The notes: generated from the letters alone by a model not told the origin. 64,000 bases of DNA from a virus (IMGVR_UViG_3300050151_000071:1-64000), one strand, 5' to 3'; shown: positions 2,590 to 48,657, counted from the first letter of the stretch. Made by a program: numbers and translations.

Positions 2590-2706
2590 TGGTGGACCCA
2601 GGTGGATTTTTACCACCAATCCCCTTTAGCAACCCGAAGGGTGTTTTGTCGCCTAACTAAGCCCTCACGATCGCAAGGAGTTAGCAGAAGTTGAAACTAT
2701 GGGTCC
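2590..2706 (-). ncRNA. tRNA-like RNA with ~45-nt hairpin inserted in the D-loop
   Basis: GGACCCA/TGGGTCC+ACCA acceptor, GTTT/AAAC D-stem, CCCTT/AAGGG arm with 10-nt loop, T-arm GGTGG-TAAAAAT-CCACC. Confidence 0.7.
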
Positions 2707-2711
2707 GTCTT

Positions 2712-2789
2712 TGGTGCGCCGTGCGGGACTCGAACCCGCAACCAAATCTTTTAGAGGGATCTGCTCTAACCAAATTGAGCTAACAGCGC
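2712..2789 (-). tRNA. second tRNA with CUA anticodon (putative amber suppressor, A73)
   Basis: GCGCTGT/ACGGCGC acceptor, GCTC/GAGC D-stem, GATCC-CTCTAAA-AGATT arm, canonical T-arm, encoded CCA. Confidence 0.8.
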
Positions 2790-6601: not shown

Positions 6602-6678
6602 TGGTACCCGAGGAGGGATTCGAACCCCCGCATGCCAGGATGTAAACCTGGAGCCTTAAACCACTTGGCGACTCGGGC
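6602..6678 (-). tRNA. trnV: tRNA-Val(UAC)
   Basis: Cloverleaf with CCAGG-TT TAC AT-CCTGG arm and ACCA end. Confidence 0.95.
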
Positions 6679-6806
6679 AGAAACTCCTCTGGTGCGCATC
6701 GTAGAGAGGCGTGAGGAGTGTTGTTACATTTGTAGAAGAATAAGCCAAGGTAACTAGTGTTGTCTTGCGCCCTTATTCTTAATCACTGTTTCCAGCAATT
6801 GGTAGT

Positions 6807-12288: not shown

Positions 12289-12365
12289 TGGTGCCTCCAG
12301 TAGGACTTTCACCTACATCTCCCTCTGTCGCTAGGGCAGTACTACTTCCCATGTGTCCGAGGTTT
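12289..12365 (-). ncRNA. degenerate tRNA-like element
   Basis: T-arm GTAGG-TGAAAGT-CCTAC, TGGAGGC+ACCA 3' end, CCCT/AGGG arm with an 8-nt loop, imperfect acceptor. Confidence 0.45.
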
Positions 12366-12419
12366 TTATATTAACCCCGCTAAGGGCTTTTTAAACTACA
12401 GAGGCAAACATATATTAGA

Positions 12420-24697: not shown

Positions 24698-24899
24698 CGC
24701 TATAAAGTTCTTCCACGTCTAAAACCTCAAAAGAGGCCCCAATAGCTTTAGCTGTTCTTTCGAAGACTGAAGCTGCAGCTTCCATTCCGGAGGAAGCATG
24801 TTCGTCGTAGTTGGTCGAACCAACATCTACGCCATTAACAAAATAGCGTTCGCCATTTTCACGGTCGAACGCTCGTTTAATTAGAAATACGTGTGTCAT
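24687..24899 (-). CDS. hypothetical protein
   Basis: AAAGGA RBS, 70 aa. Confidence 0.7.
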   Translation of the reverse strand: MTHVFLIKRAFDRENGERYFVNGVDVGSTNYDEHASSGMEAAASVFERTAKAIGASFEVLDVEELYSDEE

Positions 24900-24919
24900 T
24901 GTATTATCCTTTAATTAAC

Positions 24920-25021
24920 CTCAGCAGTGAGACTTACACTCACATCGCGTCTTCGTAGGAACGCATCTTAAATCTACTCGCGTTTGCAATCATGAAGCAG
25001 ATCTAATTAGAAGATACTGAG
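24920..25021 (-). ncRNA. tRNA-shaped RNA motif, copy B
   Basis: CTCAGTA/TGCTGAG stem, TGC-9nt-GCA hairpin, CGCG..GTAG/CTAC..CGCG arm, GTGAG-TGTAAGT-CTCAC arm. Confidence 0.6.
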
Positions 25022-25055
25022 TTAAAACAGAGCCTAGGAACCTCTGCTTCGAAAT

Positions 25056-25171
25056 TGGAGCCGGCTCTGGGACTCGAACCCAGATCTGTTCCACCAAAGG
25101 AACCGTTTTGCGTTCATCCGAAGTGGTGCACCACTTTAATGGACTAGGCTTTCGTCTTAAACTAAACCGAC
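25056..25171 (-). ncRNA. tRNA-like RNA with ~50-nt D-loop insertion and 6-nt anticodon loop
   Basis: GTCGGTT/AGCCGGC+T+CCA, GTTT/AAAC D-stem, GTTCC-TTTGGT-GGAAC arm, canonical T-arm CTGGG-TTCGAGT-CCCAG. Confidence 0.7.
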
Positions 25172-25176
25172 ATAGT

Positions 25177-25274
25177 ACCAGCGGTGAGACTTTACTCACA
25201 TTCCCGATCAAGGATCTTATCTAACACTTGAGGGGTTGCGAAACCAAAGCATCAGATTATTAGAAGACACTAGT
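25177..25274 (-). ncRNA. tRNA-shaped RNA motif, copy A
   Basis: ACTAGTG/CGCTGGT stem, TGC-9nt-GCA hairpin, CCC..TCAAG/CTTGA..GGG arm, GTGAG-TAAAGT-CTCAC arm. Confidence 0.6.
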
Positions 25275-25278
25275 AGAT

Positions 25279-25354
25279 TGGAGTCAAGGGTAGGATTTGA
25301 ACCTACGTTTCCCGATGGGGGCAAAGGGTGTCCTAAACACTAGACGACCTCGAC
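25279..25354 (-). tRNA. Gly-like tRNA (U73) with aberrant C-rich anticodon arm
   Basis: GTCGAGG/CCTTGAC acceptor, canonical D and T arms, CCC-TTTGCCCCCATC-GGG arm. Confidence 0.6.
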
Positions 25355-29187: not shown

Positions 29188-29592
29188 TTAATATAAACTA
29201 GTATTGGTGGGTAAAGACTTCTGGACAGCATCTTGAAGCTCTTTTAGATATACAAGCTGCTCTTGTTGATCTGCTGACGGATGGCCGCCCAAACCTTCAA
29301 TATTTTTGATTCGATTTTCTAGGTTTACGATATCCTCACACGCTCTTGTAAGGGCAGCTCGCTTATCGTTTTCACGATGCGTCACATACTCATGAAGAGC
29401 CCACAAAATATCTTTTTTATCAACATCTTGCTTGTTGTGAAGCTTGAAGATGATACTACCCATACGACACTTATCAGCAGCTAACTGGTTAGCTCGCTCT
29501 TTAAAGTTTACAGGTCTAGCAATGGGCGACTCAGTGGGTGATGGAAAACGACCGTATTGACGGCCATCATCATCGTAATCTCGACAAGGCAT
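29188..29592 (-). CDS. hypothetical protein
   Basis: Start at MPCRDYDD; coiled-coil C-terminus. Confidence 0.7.
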   Translation of the reverse strand: MPCRDYDDDGRQYGRFPSPTESPIARPVNFKERANQLAADKCRMGSIIFKLHNKQDVDKKDILWALHEYVTHRENDKRAALTRACEDIVNLENRIKNIEGLGGHPSADQQEQLVYLKELQDAVQKSLPTNTSLY

Positions 29593-30733
29593 GGTGGGCT
29601 CTTCCAATCAAATCAATTTTAGTTAAAGTGTAACGGCTTTCTTTCCACTGCTGGCGCAGATCAGCCAAAGCTTGGCCCACAATAGGACCAGCCATAATTT
29701 TATATTCATCCATGATGTCCTGACCCCGAATAGGGAAGACAGGAACATAATAGCCTTCTACAAACACCGCGATGTCGGGACGCAGAGTCATAGCGCACAG
29801 ACTGATGATATATTCAGTTGAAACACCATCAACCAACCAATCCATAACTCGATCCAGAGTCAGGTTGACGTAGTACTTGTCGGCCAGCCAAACGATTTTG
29901 TTCGTTTCAGCTCGAGACATCTTCCAGCTGTTACAGAACTCGCGAGCTTCTACAGGACGGCCAGTGAAGAACTGAGCGACCACTGAACAAGCATCATCAC
30001 TCCGATTCAACTCTTTGGCTAAGCCATCCAGCGGTAGGCCAATAGCTTTAGCCACGCCGTAATTATCCATCAAATGATACACGGATGCACGATCAGGATA
30101 AATAAAGAGCTTTTGCATCTCTAGCCAAACACGCTCACGGCTGATTTGTTTCAGTCCTTCAAGTGAGGCGTGTTGAGATATGATGTCACAATCGTTCCAA
30201 TCCATATCAGCGGAGAAACGTGCAGCAAAACGGAAGTAGCGCAGAATCCGCAGATAGTCTTCTTGGATTCGAGTTTTGGTGTCACCCACGAACCGAACGA
30301 TGTTATTCTTCAGATCATCGATGCCACCAAAGTAGTCATAGACTGTACCATCAAAGTCCATGCTCATTGCGTTCATTGTCAGATCCCGACGTGCAGCATC
30401 TTGTTCAAACGACGTGGTGTATTCGACTTCTGCGTGCCGACCATCAGTATCATTATCGATACGCAGGGTGGTGATTTCGAACGGCTCGTGATCTACAACG
30501 AACGTCACAGTGCCATGCTGCAGACCAGTCGGAACTACTGTGAAACCAGCTTCCTTACCGATCTCAACCAGTTTCTCGGGCAGAGCATCCGTACACATAT
30601 CGCAATCTTTAGGCTTCTCGCCTAAGATCAAATCTCGGACAAAGCCACCGACAGGGCGTAGTGAAAATCCACGAGACGTAATAGCGTCGTGGATTTTCAG
30701 CATCTGAGGATTTGTGATCGGATCTAGTTTCAT
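29570..30733 (-). CDS. cca: tRNA nucleotidyltransferase (CCA-adding / poly(A) polymerase class II)
   Basis: VGGFVRDLILG..KDCD, HGTV, EITTLR, DAARRDLTMNAM and EDYLRILRYFRF; no HD domain. Confidence 0.9.
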   Translation of the reverse strand: MKLDPITNPQMLKIHDAITSRGFSLRPVGGFVRDLILGEKPKDCDMCTDALPEKLVEIGKEAGFTVVPTGLQHGTVTFVVDHEPFEITTLRIDNDTDGRHAEVEYTTSFEQDAARRDLTMNAMSMDFDGTVYDYFGGIDDLKNNIVRFVGDTKTRIQEDYLRILRYFRFAARFSADMDWNDCDIISQHASLEGLKQISRERVWLEMQKLFIYPDRASVYHLMDNYGVAKAIGLPLDGLAKELNRSDDACSVVAQFFTGRPVEAREFCNSWKMSRAETNKIVWLADKYYVNLTLDRVMDWLVDGVSTEYIISLCAMTLRPDIAVFVEGYYVPVFPIRGQDIMDEYKIMAGPIVGQALADLRQQWKESRYTLTKIDLIGRAHHALSRLR

Positions 30734-30769
30734 AGATCCTTTATAGAGCATTCGATCTTAAATGTCAAC

Positions 30770-35058: not shown

Positions 35059-35466
35059 TCAGTCTTTGGTATTCCTATAAATGTAATCGTTTAAATTTGG
35101 TGCCCACGTTATAAGGATTTGCTTATCGAGGAAAAAACGACCCTCGAACAAGTAATAGCCATATCCGTGATCTAATAGAACTTCTAAAACGTGATGGAGT
35201 TGAGAGTTAGCTCTTTGATCAAAGAAGTCACAAACGGCCACTTCTCCAACTATAGATTTTAAACCTATTTGTTTAGAATTATAATGTTCTGATACTTCTG
35301 CTGTACAAGCGTCTGTTATTAGCTTAACTGTATCAGGAACACTAAGTCTTTTAAGATCTTCTGCAAGAACACATAAATCCTTAGCTGTTATCACTCGCGG
35401 TTCCATCCCAAATGTTCCATACTGGTAAGCTGTCATTGAAGATGCCTTTACGGCACAGCTTGTCAA
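35059..35466 (-). CDS. hypothetical protein (start uncertain)
   Basis: ORF overlapping the 3' end of the RNA ligase gene. Confidence 0.55.
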   Translation of the reverse strand: MTSCAVKASSMTAYQYGTFGMEPRVITAKDLCVLAEDLKRLSVPDTVKLITDACTAEVSEHYNSKQIGLKSIVGEVAVCDFFDQRANSQLHHVLEVLLDHGYGYYLFEGRFFLDKQILITWAPNLNDYIYRNTKD

Positions 35467-36625
35467 AATCTGTGTCTGACTTATCGCACATCTTCAAGAT
35501 GATCTCTTTGAAAGAGTCAGCAATCATTAGGTGCGGATGGAACGGATAATCGTTCCGTCTGTCAAACAGTTTAAAGCCAATTGTCCGAGTAATGTGATCA
35601 GAATCAATTGTGCTGATCGCGAAGTCCTTCTTCGTCTCAAAAGTACGAAGAGCCTCGTATAGAGACAACGCAATACCTTCTAAACGTTCTTCATACTGCA
35701 TAACGAATTGCTTAGCGTAAGCCTCAAGCTTCGGACGTACGTGGTCTGGAACCAGACCCAAAGCATCATCGATCCGTTCGTTGAGGATAAGACCCACAAC
35801 GTACTTCTCTTTGGCGATAGCTTCACGGTTCTTGTGGAGGTCCATGTACCAAAGGCTTTTTACCTTCAGACGATCTCCGTTACGCAGTTCTACAACTACA
35901 CCTTCGGTTCCCTCAAGCTCTCGTACTTGATCGACCAATGAAGCATTATCCGATACTTCCCAGCGTTTTACAACAGGGATATTGAAGCAAGATGCGAGGC
36001 TAGCCATCTTATCATACGACATGTATTCACCAGTATTGATGTCACGAACCGCAAGAAGAGACATTGTTTCTTCAGGGTGGTTTACAACGATCCGATGCTT
36101 CGGCGCCATGTATTCAAAGATGGGAGTCATGTTCCGCTGAGAGATGAGAATACCAGCAAAGTCGTGATATTTCTTCATCATTTTACCGGAGGTCAGGGTG
36201 CTTTCCATAGTGGAACGCTGAACGAAGGATCGCAAGTCGTCAGTCATATGGGTGAGGCCCATCTTGGTACCCCAAACCAGATCACCGTTCAGAAAGAACG
36301 GAGCAACCATAGACCCATCAAGCTTGTCATACACAGCCACGATCTCGTTGAGATCGATGTCGCGAGACTCCATGCGCTCTCCGAAGTTGAAGAACTTATG
36401 CAGGGGACGTCGTAGAATCTTACCAGTCTTCGCACAGAAAATCATACCGCGACATTCACGAAGAATGGCAGCTTCATGTCCCACTGATAGGTCCGGGAAC
36501 ACTGACATGATCGATCGATAGTTGACTACAAGATAGTCACCTTTATCAGCAATGTAGAATGCTTCATCAGGTTGCGCCTCAACATAGAGACGCACATCAT
36601 CGATGTGTTCAATTTTAGGAAACAT
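35381..36625 (-). CDS. rnlA: RNA ligase 1 (T4 Rnl1-like)
   Basis: ECRGMIF, RPLHKFFN, KLDGS, FEY, EGVVV and KVKSLWY..H. Confidence 0.9.
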   Translation of the reverse strand: MFPKIEHIDDVRLYVEAQPDEAFYIADKGDYLVVNYRSIMSVFPDLSVGHEAAILRECRGMIFCAKTGKILRRPLHKFFNFGERMESRDIDLNEIVAVYDKLDGSMVAPFFLNGDLVWGTKMGLTHMTDDLRSFVQRSTMESTLTSGKMMKKYHDFAGILISQRNMTPIFEYMAPKHRIVVNHPEETMSLLAVRDINTGEYMSYDKMASLASCFNIPVVKRWEVSDNASLVDQVRELEGTEGVVVELRNGDRLKVKSLWYMDLHKNREAIAKEKYVVGLILNERIDDALGLVPDHVRPKLEAYAKQFVMQYEERLEGIALSLYEALRTFETKKDFAISTIDSDHITRTIGFKLFDRRNDYPFHPHLMIADSFKEIILKMCDKSDTDFDKLCRKGIFNDSLPVWNIWDGTASDNS

Positions 36626-37665: not shown

Positions 37666-37955
37666 TGGTATCCCCGGCCGGAATCGAACCGGCACCCTTT
37701 CGGAACGGATTTTCGTACCACTACAACTTTCGTTGCCGCTCGTCGAGCGTTTGTAGTCTGGACTATACCTTGACCATTGCCGAAGCTTTAGGCCCTGCCC
37801 GTCTAGTCTCTACACCTTCCTCTTTTCGAGGCTTGGTTCGGGATTGCCATGTGAAAGGTTTCCCCGAATTTGAGCAGTTCTACTCCAAGAGTTTCCTCAA
37901 GGGCACTCAGTTTCCTATCAAAGTCCGTCGCGTCTACCAATTCCGCCACGGGGAC
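37666..37955 (-). tRNA. trnL: tRNA-Leu(UAA) interrupted by a group I intron (exons 37955-37921 and 37713-37666)
   Basis: GTCCCCG/CGGGGAT acceptor; the spliced arm reads ACGGA-CT T|AA AA-TCCGT. Confidence 0.92.
37714..37920 (-). mobile_element. ORF-less group I intron (207 nt, IC3-like)
   Basis: P AAATTCGGGGAA, Q AATCCCGAAC, R GTAGAGACTAGA, S AAGGTATAGTCC; P1 ACTT/GAGT with U-G; terminal G. Confidence 0.92.
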
Positions 37956-45729: not shown

Positions 45730-48657
45730 CTAGATCGTGTCGTCTGAGTGTTTTAGTTTTTCAAGAGCATTTGTGTGGTTTGCTTTTCTTACTAAAGTAT
45801 CTGAGTGTGCTCTTAACTTATCTCGGTTAGATGGTACGTGTGGCTCTACGCTCCAGATATGAACTTTACTTTTAATGTTGTTTGTTCTAATACTACCATC
45901 TTCATCGCGCAAAACGTGATGGTCACTTCTAGTTACAACCTTATGTCCAGTCATCTTCCAATGTTGACCTTTATCCATTAGGTATTCGTGTTCACCATCA
46001 CACTTAGAGATGTTGTCAACGTATGTGCCCTTATCGTATCCCTTTGGTAGATGGAAATGCAACACATGATGTTCTGTAATATGTTGTGGACGGCCAGCAG
46101 TTGTTGCAGTTCTTTGTTCTTTTTCTTCTCTAGCGAATACCGCACCTTGTCTTGGGTTTAAACTAGTAGACGTAAAGGCTGGCATGTGAATAACGCCACC
46201 GTTCTTTTTAAAATGTTCTCCTGGGTGGAAGCCACCAATACCACTATACACGTGTGCTTCGTGGTCTAACGGTTTTGCAAAATGAGCTATGGCTTCAGAT
46301 AATGCGTTAACCTTTTCATGATCAAATTTGTTGGGCGAACCATGAATTAAAGCGGTGTTTATTCTACCAGACATCTCTCCAGTATATTGTTTTAATGCAT
46401 GGGCGTGATCGTGTGTTTTAGGAGATGTGGGATCAACCCACAAGTGTTCTTTAGATGGTCCAAACGCAGACATCTTTTGATGATGATCATTTGAGTGGTC
46501 AACATTAAACTCATTTTTAGTAGCGTTTAGATGTTCAACTTTACTACTTCTAGCGTGTGGTAGGTCTACAGTTCTAAGACTTGTATCATTAAACCCACGG
46601 ACCTTATAGCTTGAATCTCTAAACATCTTTGGATCGTGGAAGTACGCTTCGGTTAGTTTTTGATACGGTCGCATAGACCATATGTGTCTATTTCCAATTT
46701 TCTGATGTCCAACGTGTTCAAATGTTTGGTTCTTATCAATAACCATTTCATGCTCGTGCTCAATGTGCGAAGCTGGAGCGATGTATCTACATTTGTTGTA
46801 TCCCTTAGGTAGTTCAAAGTGTAGGATATGAGTCTCTTTGTGAGCGTTGCTTGCACCAGGGTTAGCGTGCATACCAGCAACTTCAGGATTAAGAGATGCA
46901 CAGATATACGTTGCTGTTTTGAAATGATTCTTGTGGTGTATTAACGACCCAGGACTTACTTCTCCGAAGCTCGAATAAACGTGGTGCGTATGCTCAAGTG
47001 GCTTTGCTGTACTCATCAAATGATCCATATGATTTGTTACAGCTTGAAAGTCAGGATGCATTGGAAGGTTGTTAATCAAATGGTGAGTTATTGTTGCGCT
47101 TGATTCACTCCATGTTCCAATGTGAGTATGATGATCCGGATGATCACAGTGATGCAAAGCTGCCAAATGGTTATGCTCAGCTTCATGGTGCTCGGATGAA
47201 TCAGGGGCATCCCAATCTAGACCTAACGGATCTTTCTCTGTATTAAAGTGGGGGTTATTAGGATCGTGAGAGTGTGCCATTTCTTTTAATGTATCTTCAT
47301 GAGGTACTACAGACCAAATATGCACATGGTGCTCAACGTTTGTACCATCAGTTTTCTTTTGATTCTCTTTAACAACTGTATGTTGCTTCAACTTCCAAGA
47401 TTGTCCTCTGTCGAGCAAATATTCTTTCTCATATCCAACATGACTTGCTCCATGCACATACGCTCCCTTGTTGAAACCTTCTGGGAGATGAAAATGAAGT
47501 ACATGTCGATGAGTTTGCTTGTTATCACCAGGAGTAAAGTGGTGTTGTGAAAACCCTTTAGCTATACTAGGATCTATAGAAGTGGATGTAAAAGCTGGTA
47601 AATGAATTTTACCACCTTCTCGTTTGAAGTGATCCGTAGGATCAAAGTGTCCTAAGCCACTGTAAACATGCGCCTCATGATCAAGTGGTTTTGAGTAATG
47701 TTGAATCGCTCTGGAAATTCTATCAGTTTGTTTAGTAACGAATGATGAATCATGGCTTCCGTTATGGCCACTAATCAAAACCATATTAATAGGGTACGAT
47801 TCGTCTGTATATTCATTTAAAGTTTTAGCATGATGGTGGTGTTGTGAGTTTATATTTCTGAAATCATTACCAACTTCTTTAAACGCTGCATGCATACGGT
47901 CGTGGTGTGATTCTGCTCGTATAGCTGTTGATGCAGCAGATACGGATGTCAAGTCCTCTACATCATGGTTGAATAACTCGTTCAACTTAGCATCGTGTGG
48001 CTTAACATGCCATATCGTACGCTTAGTTGTAGGAGTCATTTGGTGTTCTGTTTTACCAGTCACCTTCCACTTACTGTTTGGACGCAATAAGAACTCACGT
48101 TCTTCAGGGAACTTTGAGGTTCCTCCGATGTACAAACCGTGTTGTGATCCTGCTGGAAGCTCAAAGTGGATTATGTGGTGGTCGTGTTTAGCAGAATCAG
48201 ACGTAGCGTTTGCGTGCATAGCAGCGATACCTGGATGTAAGCTAGCACTTGTGTGAGCTGGAGTATGGAACACACCATGCTCACCAACTGCAGAACTAGG
48301 ATCAAAATGACCTGTTGATGAATAAACATGGTGAGTCTTTTGTAAAGGTGCAGCCGAATCATACATCGTATGCAGATTCTTATGCAAGGACTGTTGCATA
48401 ATCGTAGGAGATTCACCTCTAACTAGACGACTGTTTAAATCTCCCGACTCAACTCCAGTGTATCTTAGAATTGATAGTGGATGCTTTCCAACAGCATCTT
48501 TGTGTAGCTGTCTTAGTTCTCCATGCTCTTGAGCAATTTCGTGAGGTTGTTTCACGTGTTGAAAGAATGCAGTCTCTGTATCTTGCAGATGATCCTTCAT
48601 AGCGGCATTATGCTGATAAGCTTCGTGCAAATGGTCTAAGAAGGGTTTGATTGGCAT
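45730..48657 (-). CDS. Alt-like ADP-ribosyltransferase with four tandem VIP2-type domains
   Basis: Four repeats of YT..S..IN..L / HVYS / (F)TSTS / HFxLP.G / ExE; late promoter at 48690-48684; His-rich. Confidence 0.85.
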   Translation of the reverse strand: MPIKPFLDHLHEAYQHNAAMKDHLQDTETAFFQHVKQPHEIAQEHGELRQLHKDAVGKHPLSILRYTGVESGDLNSRLVRGESPTIMQQSLHKNLHTMYDSAAPLQKTHHVYSSTGHFDPSSAVGEHGVFHTPAHTSASLHPGIAAMHANATSDSAKHDHHIIHFELPAGSQHGLYIGGTSKFPEEREFLLRPNSKWKVTGKTEHQMTPTTKRTIWHVKPHDAKLNELFNHDVEDLTSVSAASTAIRAESHHDRMHAAFKEVGNDFRNINSQHHHHAKTLNEYTDESYPINMVLISGHNGSHDSSFVTKQTDRISRAIQHYSKPLDHEAHVYSGLGHFDPTDHFKREGGKIHLPAFTSTSIDPSIAKGFSQHHFTPGDNKQTHRHVLHFHLPEGFNKGAYVHGASHVGYEKEYLLDRGQSWKLKQHTVVKENQKKTDGTNVEHHVHIWSVVPHEDTLKEMAHSHDPNNPHFNTEKDPLGLDWDAPDSSEHHEAEHNHLAALHHCDHPDHHTHIGTWSESSATITHHLINNLPMHPDFQAVTNHMDHLMSTAKPLEHTHHVYSSFGEVSPGSLIHHKNHFKTATYICASLNPEVAGMHANPGASNAHKETHILHFELPKGYNKCRYIAPASHIEHEHEMVIDKNQTFEHVGHQKIGNRHIWSMRPYQKLTEAYFHDPKMFRDSSYKVRGFNDTSLRTVDLPHARSSKVEHLNATKNEFNVDHSNDHHQKMSAFGPSKEHLWVDPTSPKTHDHAHALKQYTGEMSGRINTALIHGSPNKFDHEKVNALSEAIAHFAKPLDHEAHVYSGIGGFHPGEHFKKNGGVIHMPAFTSTSLNPRQGAVFAREEKEQRTATTAGRPQHITEHHVLHFHLPKGYDKGTYVDNISKCDGEHEYLMDKGQHWKMTGHKVVTRSDHHVLRDEDGSIRTNNIKSKVHIWSVEPHVPSNRDKLRAHSDTLVRKANHTNALEKLKHSDDTI

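Follow-up and report, generated by a model that had tools for sequence, protein, structure and literature searches.

The locus examined here raises the question of what two RNA-like elements of about 100 nucleotides (nt), standing in a row of tRNA-like genes of an uncultured, large soil phage, may be: tRNA mimics with a function, cutting signals, remnants of tRNA genes or RNAs of another kind. The window, i.e., the whole stretch of DNA that was analysed, is 64,000 nt long and belongs to a 75.9-kb IMG/VR fragment with an estimated completeness of 42%. The phage has a T4-type clamp loader and a family B polymerase, and the same genome encodes an Rnl1-type RNA ligase, a ribonucleotide reductase, a double ADP-ribosyltransferase and a class II nucleotidyltransferase. 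The phage stands apart from others; the top match of its polymerase is 45% identical. The sequencing runs carrying the locus are all DNA and come from leaf litter, apart from one freshwater run; in four further runs the phage contigs are identical, and they thus provide no population variants.

All genes of the region are found on the minus strand (Table 1). Two paralogous, tRNA-shaped RNAs of ~100 nt had been proposed in an earlier note, and this was borne out by two elements of 99 and 103 nt on that strand, here called X1 and X2. As that note also had it, each element follows a tRNA-like gene and encodes no CCA: X1 begins 4 nt after the CCA of tRNA-like A, and X2 begins 34 nt after that of tRNA-like B. 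The row A, X1, B, X2 probably arose by duplication of a two-gene unit. ARAGORN called 13 tRNAs in the window, and two CUA-anticodon tRNAs are among those called in the phage, while A, B, X1 and X2 were all left uncalled. Downstream of X2, 19 nt including an AAAGGA Shine-Dalgarno sequence lead to a 70-amino acid (aa) open reading frame (ATG at 24899), followed by a 54-aa frame and a DUF488 gene (24536-24141). A further frame (24990-25211, 73 aa, TTG start) overlapping B as well as portions of X was discounted, being an open frame of the kind that arises incidentally over RNA genes. The neighbouring genes have few relatives: the AAA+ ATPase has a single one, 37% identical, in a 395-kb phage without the RNA gap, the homologue search with the 70-aa frame was empty, and the nucleotidyltransferase had no match in viral contigs. 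In distant phages the DUF488 genes are not adjacent to tRNAs, and a DUF488-tRNA linkage is therefore not general.

Table 1 Positions of X1, X2 and their parts, of neighbouring genes and of related elements (window coordinates unless stated; all lengths in nt or base pairs, bp)
Feature	Position	Strand	Remarks
Class II nucleotidyltransferase gene	29570..30751	(-)	PF01743 110.9 bits, PF12627 26 bits
AAA+ ATPase gene	27653-25404	(-)	Stop upstream of tRNA-like A
tRNA-like A	25279..25354 (body 25354-25282, CCA 25281-25279)	(-)	Rfam tRNA 44.4 bits
X1, 99 nt	25176..25274	(-)	4-nt spacers on both sides (A upstream, B downstream)
X1 acceptor-like stem	25274-25268 with 25183-25177	(-)	ACUAGUG/CGCUGGU, 7 bp
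X1 UCUUCUAAU	25267-25259	(-)	Directly 3' of first stem strand
X1 long hairpin	about 25257-25219	(-)	
X1 short hairpin	about 25214-25202	(-)	
X1 T-like arm	25199-25184	(-)	GUGAG-UAAAGU-CUCAC
X1 3' end	25176	(-)	Unpaired A, without CCA (...GGU-A-CUAU)
tRNA-like B	25056..25171 (body 25171-25059, CCA 25058-25056)	(-)	Rfam tRNA 37.1 bits
Spacer B/X2, 34 nt	25022..25055	(-)	9-bp hairpin GAAGCAGAG...CUCUGUUUU
X2, 103 nt	24919..25021	(-)	Paralogue of X1
X2 acceptor-like stem	25021-25015 with 24926-24920	(-)	CUCAGUA/UGCUGAG, 7 bp
X2 UCUUCUAAU	25014-25006	(-)	Directly 3' of first stem strand
X2 long hairpin	about 25006-24968	(-)	
X2 short hairpin	24964-24947	(-)	GCGUU-8 nt-GACGC
X2 T-like arm	24943-24927	(-)	GUGAG-UGUAAGU-CUCAC
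X2 3' end	24919	(-)	Unpaired G, without CCA (...GAG-G-UUAA)
tRNA-like, D-loop-expanded	12289..12405	(-)	R1 19.0 bits, R3 20.4 bits; 8-nt anticodon-like loop; CCA encoded
tRNA-like, D-loop-expanded	2590..2706	(-)	D-stem GUUU/AAAC, ~45-nt hairpin, 10-nt anticodon-like loop, T-loop UAAAAAU, CCA
TROVE-like gene	L122 7445-8911 (genome 71445-72911)		DUF2828+DUF7788; ~45 kb from X

X1 and X2 are real, paralogous and structured elements. The pattern TCTTCTAAT-N5-9-TGC-N9-GCA matches at two places in the window but in none of 100 shuffles, and the minus-strand folds of the two elements beat shuffled sequences (z -2.8 and -2.2), compared with z -0.2 and -1.0 on the plus strand. The layout is tRNA-like, and several of its parts had been recognised in the earlier note: a 7-bp terminal stem kept despite sequence change, UCUUCUAAU directly after the first strand of this stem, and a GUGAG-loop-CUCAC arm abutting its 3' strand are indeed present in both copies. 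The acceptor-like stems differ at four of the seven pairs (three changed on both sides, one on one side), and 14 of 14 cells pair. The stem GUGAG/CUCAC of the T-like arm is the same in X1 and X2, the loop of X1 being one base shorter; terminal stem and T arm are thus conserved, with compensatory changes. Over the whole structure, 96-98% of cells pair between the two copies, versus 30-48% in slid controls. A single-sequence covariance model of X2 found X1 at 33.5 bits (model R1, E 1e-8) or 38.6 bits (R3), scores that differ by the structure supplied, R1 holding the minimum free energy fold S2 discussed below and R3 being a third model. Searching with one copy by nhmmer did not detect the other, and since the covariance model does, the likeness between X1 and X2 is structural.

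After X1 and X2 themselves, the best match of the models in the 76-kb genome was a phage tRNA-Glu (24.1 bits, E 1.6e-5), and the X2 models further matched other tRNAs and the tRNA-like genes at 12292-12405 and 25059-25171. None of the Rfam families matched X at E<=10 in an 801-nt search. The proposal of a new RNA motif and tRNA mimic agrees with these results, given the mutual covariance matches of 33.5-38.6 bits and phage tRNAs as the next-best matches.

Compared with canonical tRNA (RF00005; the nearest being phage tRNA-Glu 5437-5512), X shares a 7-bp acceptor stem stacked on a 5-bp T stem in both copies, with 0 nt separating the T stem from the 3' acceptor strand. It also shares U8, a possible D-stem of positions 11-13 with 22-24, a short variable region (GAU or AAU) and a place in a row of tRNA genes. 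In alignments, UCUUCUAA falls on U8-C9, the 5' strand of the D-stem and A14-A15 of phage tRNA-Glu (UCGUCUAA), while the short hairpin falls on the anticodon arm and GAU on the variable region. However, with an Rfam gathering score of 29 bits or an ARAGORN call as the threshold for tRNA membership, X stays outside: X1 and X2 were without a match to RF00005 even at E<=10 in the 801-nt search, and both ARAGORN and the Rfam tRNA model rejected the X cores even with the hairpin deleted and CCA appended. Several canonical features are missing. Unlike in tRNA, the D-loop is replaced by a hairpin module of ~40 nt, and G18-G19 are absent, as the hairpin occupies the D-loop position. In place of a 5-bp anticodon arm with a 7-nt loop, X2 has 5 bp and an 8-nt loop and X1 has 4 bp and a 5-nt loop. 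The T-loops read UGUAAGU (X2) and UAAAGU (X1) instead of U54-U55-C56-R57-A58; both keep U54 and X2 also keeps A at position 58, but U55-C56 are lost, which fits the loss of their D-loop partners G18-G19. A tmRNA, whose marks are a tRNA-like domain with the alanine identity pair G3-U70 and a reading frame for the tag, was also considered and rejected, as ARAGORN reported none and G3-U70 is absent (U3-G70 in X1, C3-G70 in X2). In a global alignment of the X cores with the 13 phage tRNAs and tRNA-like A, z did not exceed 2, so that none of them stands out as the parent, and similarity to the phage tRNA-Glu genes gave z of 0.9 or less. An ancestry of the tRNA-Glu type is a weak lead, suggested by U8-C9, the letters of the D-stem and the Glu-like body of the neighbouring A.

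The interior of X can be drawn in two ways. S1 is the interior proposed in the earlier note, with a 3-bp TGC-9-GCA hairpin and an interrupted 8-bp arm, while S2 is the minimum free energy fold of each copy, consisting of UCUUCUAA, an 11-12-bp hairpin with a 15-17-nt loop, a 4-5-bp hairpin and the T-like arm. On a near-colinear, almost gapless alignment, S1 has 95.7% of cells paired and nine double-sided pair changes, the slid controls reaching 30-48% and 0-1, respectively, and RNAalifold predicts S1 from this alignment at -20.05 kcal/mol. On a model-fitted alignment, S2 has 98.2% of cells paired, 11 both-side changes and an alifold energy of -28.58 kcal/mol. Both alignments were fitted to the structure under test and hold two sequences each, and part of the compensatory count hinges on the alignment register, so that differences can also be read as paired insertions or deletions; the covariation in S2 is partly readable as conserved blocks (AUCUG:UAGAU, CUU:RAG) with paired insertions. 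The two folds are mutually exclusive and pass the comparative test equally, and the 38.6 bits of the third model for X1 versus the 33.5 bits of the S2 model do not separate them. Folding energies differ more clearly. S2 is more stable than S1 by 3.4 kcal/mol in X1 and 8.8 kcal/mol in X2, and its share of the ensemble is 65-96%, whereas the S1 helices reach less than 10%. Taken alone, the S1 arms are equalled by 41-89% of shuffles, while the long hairpins of S2 are equalled by no more than 1-2% of shuffles in either copy. Thus, the earlier hairpin and long arm can be drawn with their pairing kept, but they are weaker than S2. Because S2 is more stable and its plan is common to three other phage genes, we consider it quite likely to be the better description of X. 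In S2, the conserved AAGAU 3' of the long hairpin can pair with UCU of UCUUCU into a 3-bp D-stem at a cost below 1 kcal/mol. The preferred fold would then have a 3-bp D-stem (UCU/AGA) enclosing the 11-12-bp hairpin at the D-loop position, followed by a 4-5-bp hairpin with a 5- or 8-nt loop at the position of the anticodon arm.

This plan recurs in other tRNA-like genes of the phage. In the elements at 2590-2706 and 12289-12405 and in B, a D-stem GUUU/AAAC or GUUU/AAGU encloses a hairpin, and two of these three CCA-encoding genes continue with an anticodon-like arm whose loop has 8 or 10 nt. The element at 12289..12405 is a more distant family member of X, its T arm GAU-GUAGG-UGAAAGU-CCUAC being close to GAU-GUGAG-UGUAAGU-CUCAC of X2. 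Across four of the five RNAs, the T-loops UGUAAGU, UAAAGU, UGAAAGU and UAAAAAU keep U54 and lose U55-C56, and A58 is kept in those of 7 nt. B has its D-stem GUUU/AAAC around an insertion of ~48 nt, the anticodon loop UUUGGUG and a canonical T-loop; the Rfam tRNA model accepts it only by skipping the 48-nt D-loop insert, and a mascRNA model scores 15.6 bits on B and nothing on X. Finally, A has a tRNA-Glu-like body (UC-GUCU-AG...GGAC) in which the D and T arms are canonical; it encodes CCA, and its anticodon arm has shrunk to 3 bp around a 12-nt loop.

Small stable RNAs of unknown function have been known in phage tRNA clusters for 50 years, among them RNAC and RNAD of T4. These species 1 and species 2 RNAs (AF158101 70908-71046 and 71053-71171) are the nearest described analogue of X. 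Like X, they are small (119 and 139 nt) and are encoded directly behind a tRNA gene in a phage tRNA cluster, and like T4, the phage carrying X has T4-type replication genes. In T4, rnaD and rnaC stand behind tRNA-Arg, 1-6 nt from their neighbours, which compares with the 4-nt spacers of X1. RNAC and RNAD are annotated as small and stable, and RNAC has been seen by Northern blot, their roles being still unknown (PMC9697503, PMC3014915). By analogy, excision by the tRNA-processing machinery is likely to be common to RNAC, RNAD and X. There is, however, no sequence or covariance similarity between the T4 RNAs and X (R1 reached 6.5 bits, E 1.2, on rnaC and had no match on rnaD). RNAC also has a canonical T arm (CCGGGUUCGAAUCCCGG), whereas the T-loop of X is non-canonical, and unlike X1 and X2, RNAC and RNAD are not paralogues of each other. 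The MHV68 vtRNAs and mascRNA are non-aminoacylated tRNA look-alikes as well, which become stable small RNAs through RNase P and RNase Z cleavage and CCA addition. Yet, they differ from X in being eukaryotic, unrelated in sequence and without a D-loop hairpin.

The 3' end sets X apart from its neighbours, as all 17 other listed genes (13 tRNAs and four tRNA-likes) encode CCA. Some T4 tRNA precursors lack CCA and require the host RNase BN and a CCA-adding enzyme. In view of this precedent and of the candidate gene of the CCA-adding enzyme or poly(A) polymerase family 4.3 kb upstream, it is plausible that the phage nucleotidyltransferase adds CCA to X, and the 7+5-bp acceptor/T stack also speaks for such tailing. 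Alternatively, X could lack CCA amid CCA-encoding tRNA genes for the reason that it does not go through tRNA-like maturation in the first place.

On balance, X1 and X2 are probably a pair of functional, non-decoding tRNA mimics that are processed like tRNAs. We infer the expression, processing, CCA addition and function of X along the following lines. With a 7-bp acceptor-like stem on a 5-bp T-like arm and with U8, X keeps the features read by tRNA processing, while it has lost what decoding needs, i.e., the 7-nt anticodon loop, U55-C56 of the T-loop, G18-G19 of the D-loop and an encoded CCA. X would be co-transcribed with the flanking tRNA-like genes as a polycistronic transcript, RNase P would release its 5' end and RNase Z/BN or exonucleases its 3' end, and the phage nucleotidyltransferase may then add CCA. 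It could be speculated that X works away from the ribosome. In the conflict between phage and host over tRNAs, it could be a decoy or sponge for some tRNA-binding factor, or its scaffold; a role as decoy or protein-binding scaffold is a guess. A context of tRNA conflict or repair is visible in the genome, with the Rnl1-type RNA ligase, the nucleotidyltransferase, the TROVE-like gene with a YrlA-like match and the two CUA tRNAs.

A different view of the same gene order is that X acts in cis, as punctuation. X1 and X2 would be minimal RNase P/Z substrates that cut the polycistron without acting in trans, and X2 would set or stabilise the 5' end of the downstream mRNA. An acceptor stem stacked on a T arm is a minimal RNase P substrate, which is what X offers. 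The position of X2 is also suitable, as it ends 19 nt before the start codon at 24899 and just upstream of the Shine-Dalgarno sequence. No promoter or terminator was detected around the A-X1-B-X2 locus, which makes long co-transcripts likely, and the absence of CCA would suit an element that does not need tRNA maturation. The terminator scan did not flag the 9-bp hairpin in the spacer before X2; this hairpin could mark a site of processing or attenuate transcription weakly. Yet, X1 is followed by a tRNA-like gene and not by an mRNA, and RNase P sites are already supplied by the neighbouring tRNA-like genes. Furthermore, a cutting signal alone would need neither a conserved interior (UCUUCUAAU, UAGAU/AAGAU) nor an 11-12-bp hairpin, so that we regard this explanation as unlikely.

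Homologues of X were also sought. Models R1 and R2 were searched over 63 DUF488 loci, 49 whole related phage records, 60 kb of the tRNA-rich G002 and the Logan contigs L329, L330 and L333, and no intact homologue was found; the searches yielded ordinary tRNAs and one coding-sequence coincidence. Using nhmmer and blastn-short over 1.8 Mb of fetched loci gave nothing significant, and a megablast-type search of a phage collection gave no match. In viral contigs, TCTTCTAAT-N5-9-TGC-N9-GCA had at least 119 matches, none of them with the T-like arm. Three stricter patterns gave 7 and 40 matches in viral contigs and one in metagenome contigs, all of which were rejected as chance, judged by model or stem pairing. 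A T-arm consensus pattern had eight matches, the structured ones being tRNA-Gly genes only. The structure of X thus rests on two sequences, and X1 and X2 appear to be undescribed, the collections searched containing no close relatives. In the closest relative found (L329-L332, with a DUF488 protein 65% identical), a likeness to the 3' half of X was noticed ~460 nt upstream of DUF488, in a stretch that reads UUAGAG...UGAUCGGG-UAU-AAGAGUCUCACCACUGAGG. Of the T and acceptor stems, this stretch lacks the 5' strands, and it overlaps an Acb1-family gene at that gene's end. As standard E-values give it no support, it is reported as a possible truncated relic of X. Around the DUF488 gene of another relative, L333, other aberrant tRNA-likes are densely clustered, and one of them is CCA-less and has the same GUGAG/CUCAC T stem.

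Such a relic would agree with X1 and X2 being decaying, functionless duplicates of tRNA genes. The locus is indeed rich in aberrant tRNA-likes, with the anticodon arm of A wrecked and an insertion in the D-loop of B, and tRNA detectors reject X. However, the pairing is intact although the two copies have diverged past detection by nhmmer, their T stems are identical and their acceptor stems are fully paired in spite of the changed pairs. In addition, ~200 nt of dead sequence would rarely be retained in phage genomes. Decay is therefore improbable, and slightly more so than a role as punctuation.

The earlier note had also likened X to Y RNAs, which would make X1 and X2 partners of the phage TROVE/vWA (Ro60-like) protein. 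Bacterial Y RNAs reportedly mimic tRNA, and YrlA (RF02553) resembles X as a non-coding RNA with a tRNA-mimicking module that occurs in bacteria and phages with a gene for Ro60/TROVE, as in this phage. The same genome encodes the DUF2828+DUF7788 protein, followed by a sub-threshold YrlA match (34 bits) and tRNA-like elements. However, the YrlA comparison that the note had called for gave no match at E<=10 on the X locus, and the topology of YrlA is permuted relative to X, since the ends of YrlA form the Ro-binding stem whereas those of X form an acceptor-like stem. YrlA genes are also found beside the Ro60/TROVE gene, while X is not adjacent to the TROVE-like gene of the phage, which lies ~45 kb away with an RNA array of its own. 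The likeness to Y RNAs was thus not upheld, and the partnership is very improbable.

A further idea, that X is charged (e.g., with glutamate) and used by a transferase as a non-ribosomal amino-acid carrier, draws on the staphylococcal non-proteogenic tRNA-Gly. In these tRNAs, TGT or TGC replaces TTC in the T-loop, and they bind EF-Tu and the ribosome poorly (PMC7826273). The T-loop of X2 likewise begins with UGU instead of UUC as in NP1-NP3, and the tRNA-Gly(UCC) of two provirus records (L282, L284) has the T-loop UGUAAGU identical to that of X2, with a similar stem. The non-proteogenic tRNA-Gly is, however, a complete 75-nt cloverleaf with a UCC anticodon that is aminoacylated and serves Fem transferases, whereas X has no anticodon loop and a large insertion, and its charging is only hypothetical. 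For E. coli tRNA-Glu, the identity set comprises U34, U35, C36 and A37, U11-A24, U13-G22:A46, the absence of residue 47, G1-C72 and U2-A71 (PMC9976931). In the inferred D-stem register, X has U11-A24, C12-G23, U13-A22 (not U13-G22) and a variable region of 2-3 nt, so that only U11-A24 and the short variable region would be retained as part of the E. coli GluRS set. There is no UUC in a 7-nt loop, and the first pair is A1-U72 in X1 and C1-G72 in X2, so that G1-C72 is missing in both, as is an encoded CCA. Overall similarity to tRNA-Glu is not significant, and a GluRS gene was not found in the 76 kb of this 42% complete phage record or in 25 related records. A carrier function is accordingly highly unlikely. 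Equally far from likely is an RNA switch alternating between the two states S1 and S2, the latter with the D-loop hairpin: each fold is kept in both copies, and one 3' segment (GGG or CGCG) has a choice of two pairing partners in both, one close by and one distant, but the S1 helices are scarce in the ensemble and no better than shuffles, and a second weak common fold is unsurprising given two sequences and a free choice of alignment.

Returning to non-decoding mimics processed like tRNAs, the X pair may have a wider meaning. tRNAs are a main battleground of phage defence, where anticodon nucleases, PARIS, retron effectors and Schlafen-type nucleases act. Tentatively, and with more doubt than for X alone, X1, X2 and the elements at 2590-2706, 12289-12405 and 25056-25171 could form an undescribed class of phage RNAs in which a tRNA body has been remodelled for tasks away from the ribosome. 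They would be decoys that draw off defence nucleases aimed at tRNAs, or sponges that soak up an enzyme binding tRNA. The hallmarks of this class would be an arm in the D-loop, a dead anticodon arm and the T-loop type of EF-Tu-avoiding tRNAs, and the CCA-less X would be a subtype with a 3' end set by the phage nucleotidyltransferase. The non-proteogenic tRNA-Gly offers a natural precedent of a tRNA-shaped RNA kept off EF-Tu and the ribosome. If S1 and S2 were both real, X would also be a conformational switch. The X genes escape standard tRNA and Rfam scans entirely, which marks a blind spot of these scans. With at least five rebuilt, non-decoding tRNA look-alikes and RNA-repair genes in one phage, tRNA mimicry could be a deliberate strategy, of which the X pair is a small, testable example.

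The gene directly upstream of X1, one of the two paralogous CCA-less tRNA-like RNAs X1 and X2, is itself aberrant. This gene, tRNA-like A, scores 44 bits with the Rfam tRNA model and is not called by ARAGORN. It probably cannot decode, because its anticodon arm consists of just 3 bp closing a 12-nt loop (CCC-UUUGCCCCCAUC-GGG). Three further tRNA-like genes of the window, one of them lying between X1 and X2, carry a hairpin module of 45-50 nt inside the D-stem, and two of these have anticodon-like loops of 8-10 nt and non-canonical T-loops (UAAAAAU and UGAAAGU).

Aberrant tRNA-like genes are also found in the related Logan contig L333, where four tRNA bodies share a conserved anticodon-loop insertion of ~65-70 nt with the core GACUCCGYGUUYCACRCGGUUGCGUAGAAUAGAGAUACUUCG. 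This insertion might represent either a small intron or a module in place of the anticodon. The CCA-less gene of the same contig begins 2 nt past the DUF488 stop codon and scores 37.3 bits with Rfam tRNA, and it is not called by ARAGORN. In the contigs of the closest relative found (L329-L332), the stretch resembling the 3' half of X1 and X2 runs across the stop codon of an Acb1-family (anti-CBASS nuclease) gene, with DUF488 ~460 nt downstream. This stretch is possibly the remnant of an X-type gene. The T arm of the provirus tRNA-Gly(UCC) reads GUAGG-UGUAAGU-CCUAC, a T-loop of the type described for the staphylococcal non-proteogenic tRNA-Gly (PMC7826273).

Features in the window (no prefix), the rest of the same phage genome (L122, genome positions 64001-75922), related contigs (L329-L333) and provirus records (L282, L284)
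Feature	Position	Strand	Details
tRNA-like A	25279-25354	-	tRNA-Glu-like body; D and T arms canonical; CCA encoded
tRNA-likes, D-stem hairpin	2590-2706; 12289-12405; 25056-25171	-	CCA encoded
tRNA bodies, anticodon-loop insertion	L333 6232-6375; 6620-6790; 6790-6915; 8587-8716	+	
CCA-less tRNA-like	L333 8383-8455	+	T stem GUGAG/CUCAC; anticodon arm irregular
Stretch like 3' half of X1/X2	L329 7484-7545; also L330-L332	+ (L329)	
tRNA-Gly(UCC)	L282 6395-6466; also L284	- (L282)	In nine-tRNA cluster
DUF2828+DUF7788 (TROVE/vWA-like) protein, then RNA array	L122 6870-8911	-	
abiF RNA motif	6683-6718	-	Rfam 38.9 bits (gathering score 37)
Skipping-rope RNA	15219-15355	-	Rfam 45.3 bits (gathering score 36.7)
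Group I intron match	37721-37930	-	Sub-threshold, 49.7 bits (gathering score 50)
tRNAs, CUA (amber-reading) anticodon	2385-2460; 2712-2789	-	ARAGORN label Pyl
Rnl1-type RNA ligase	35381-36625	-	PF09511, 93.9 bits
975-aa protein	45730-48657	-	Two ADP-ribosyltransferase domains

The RNA array following the TROVE/vWA-like gene shows canonical T-loops and contains a sub-threshold YrlA match (34 bits) as well as a tRNA-model match of 144 nt. Within the window, the abiF motif comes right after tRNA-Val (6602-6678) and might represent a phage-carried version of an RNA associated with an abortive-infection system. Finally, the RNA ligase, the double ADP-ribosyltransferase protein and the nucleotidyltransferase (29570-30751, - strand) together resemble a T4-like kit for tRNA repair and host takeover.
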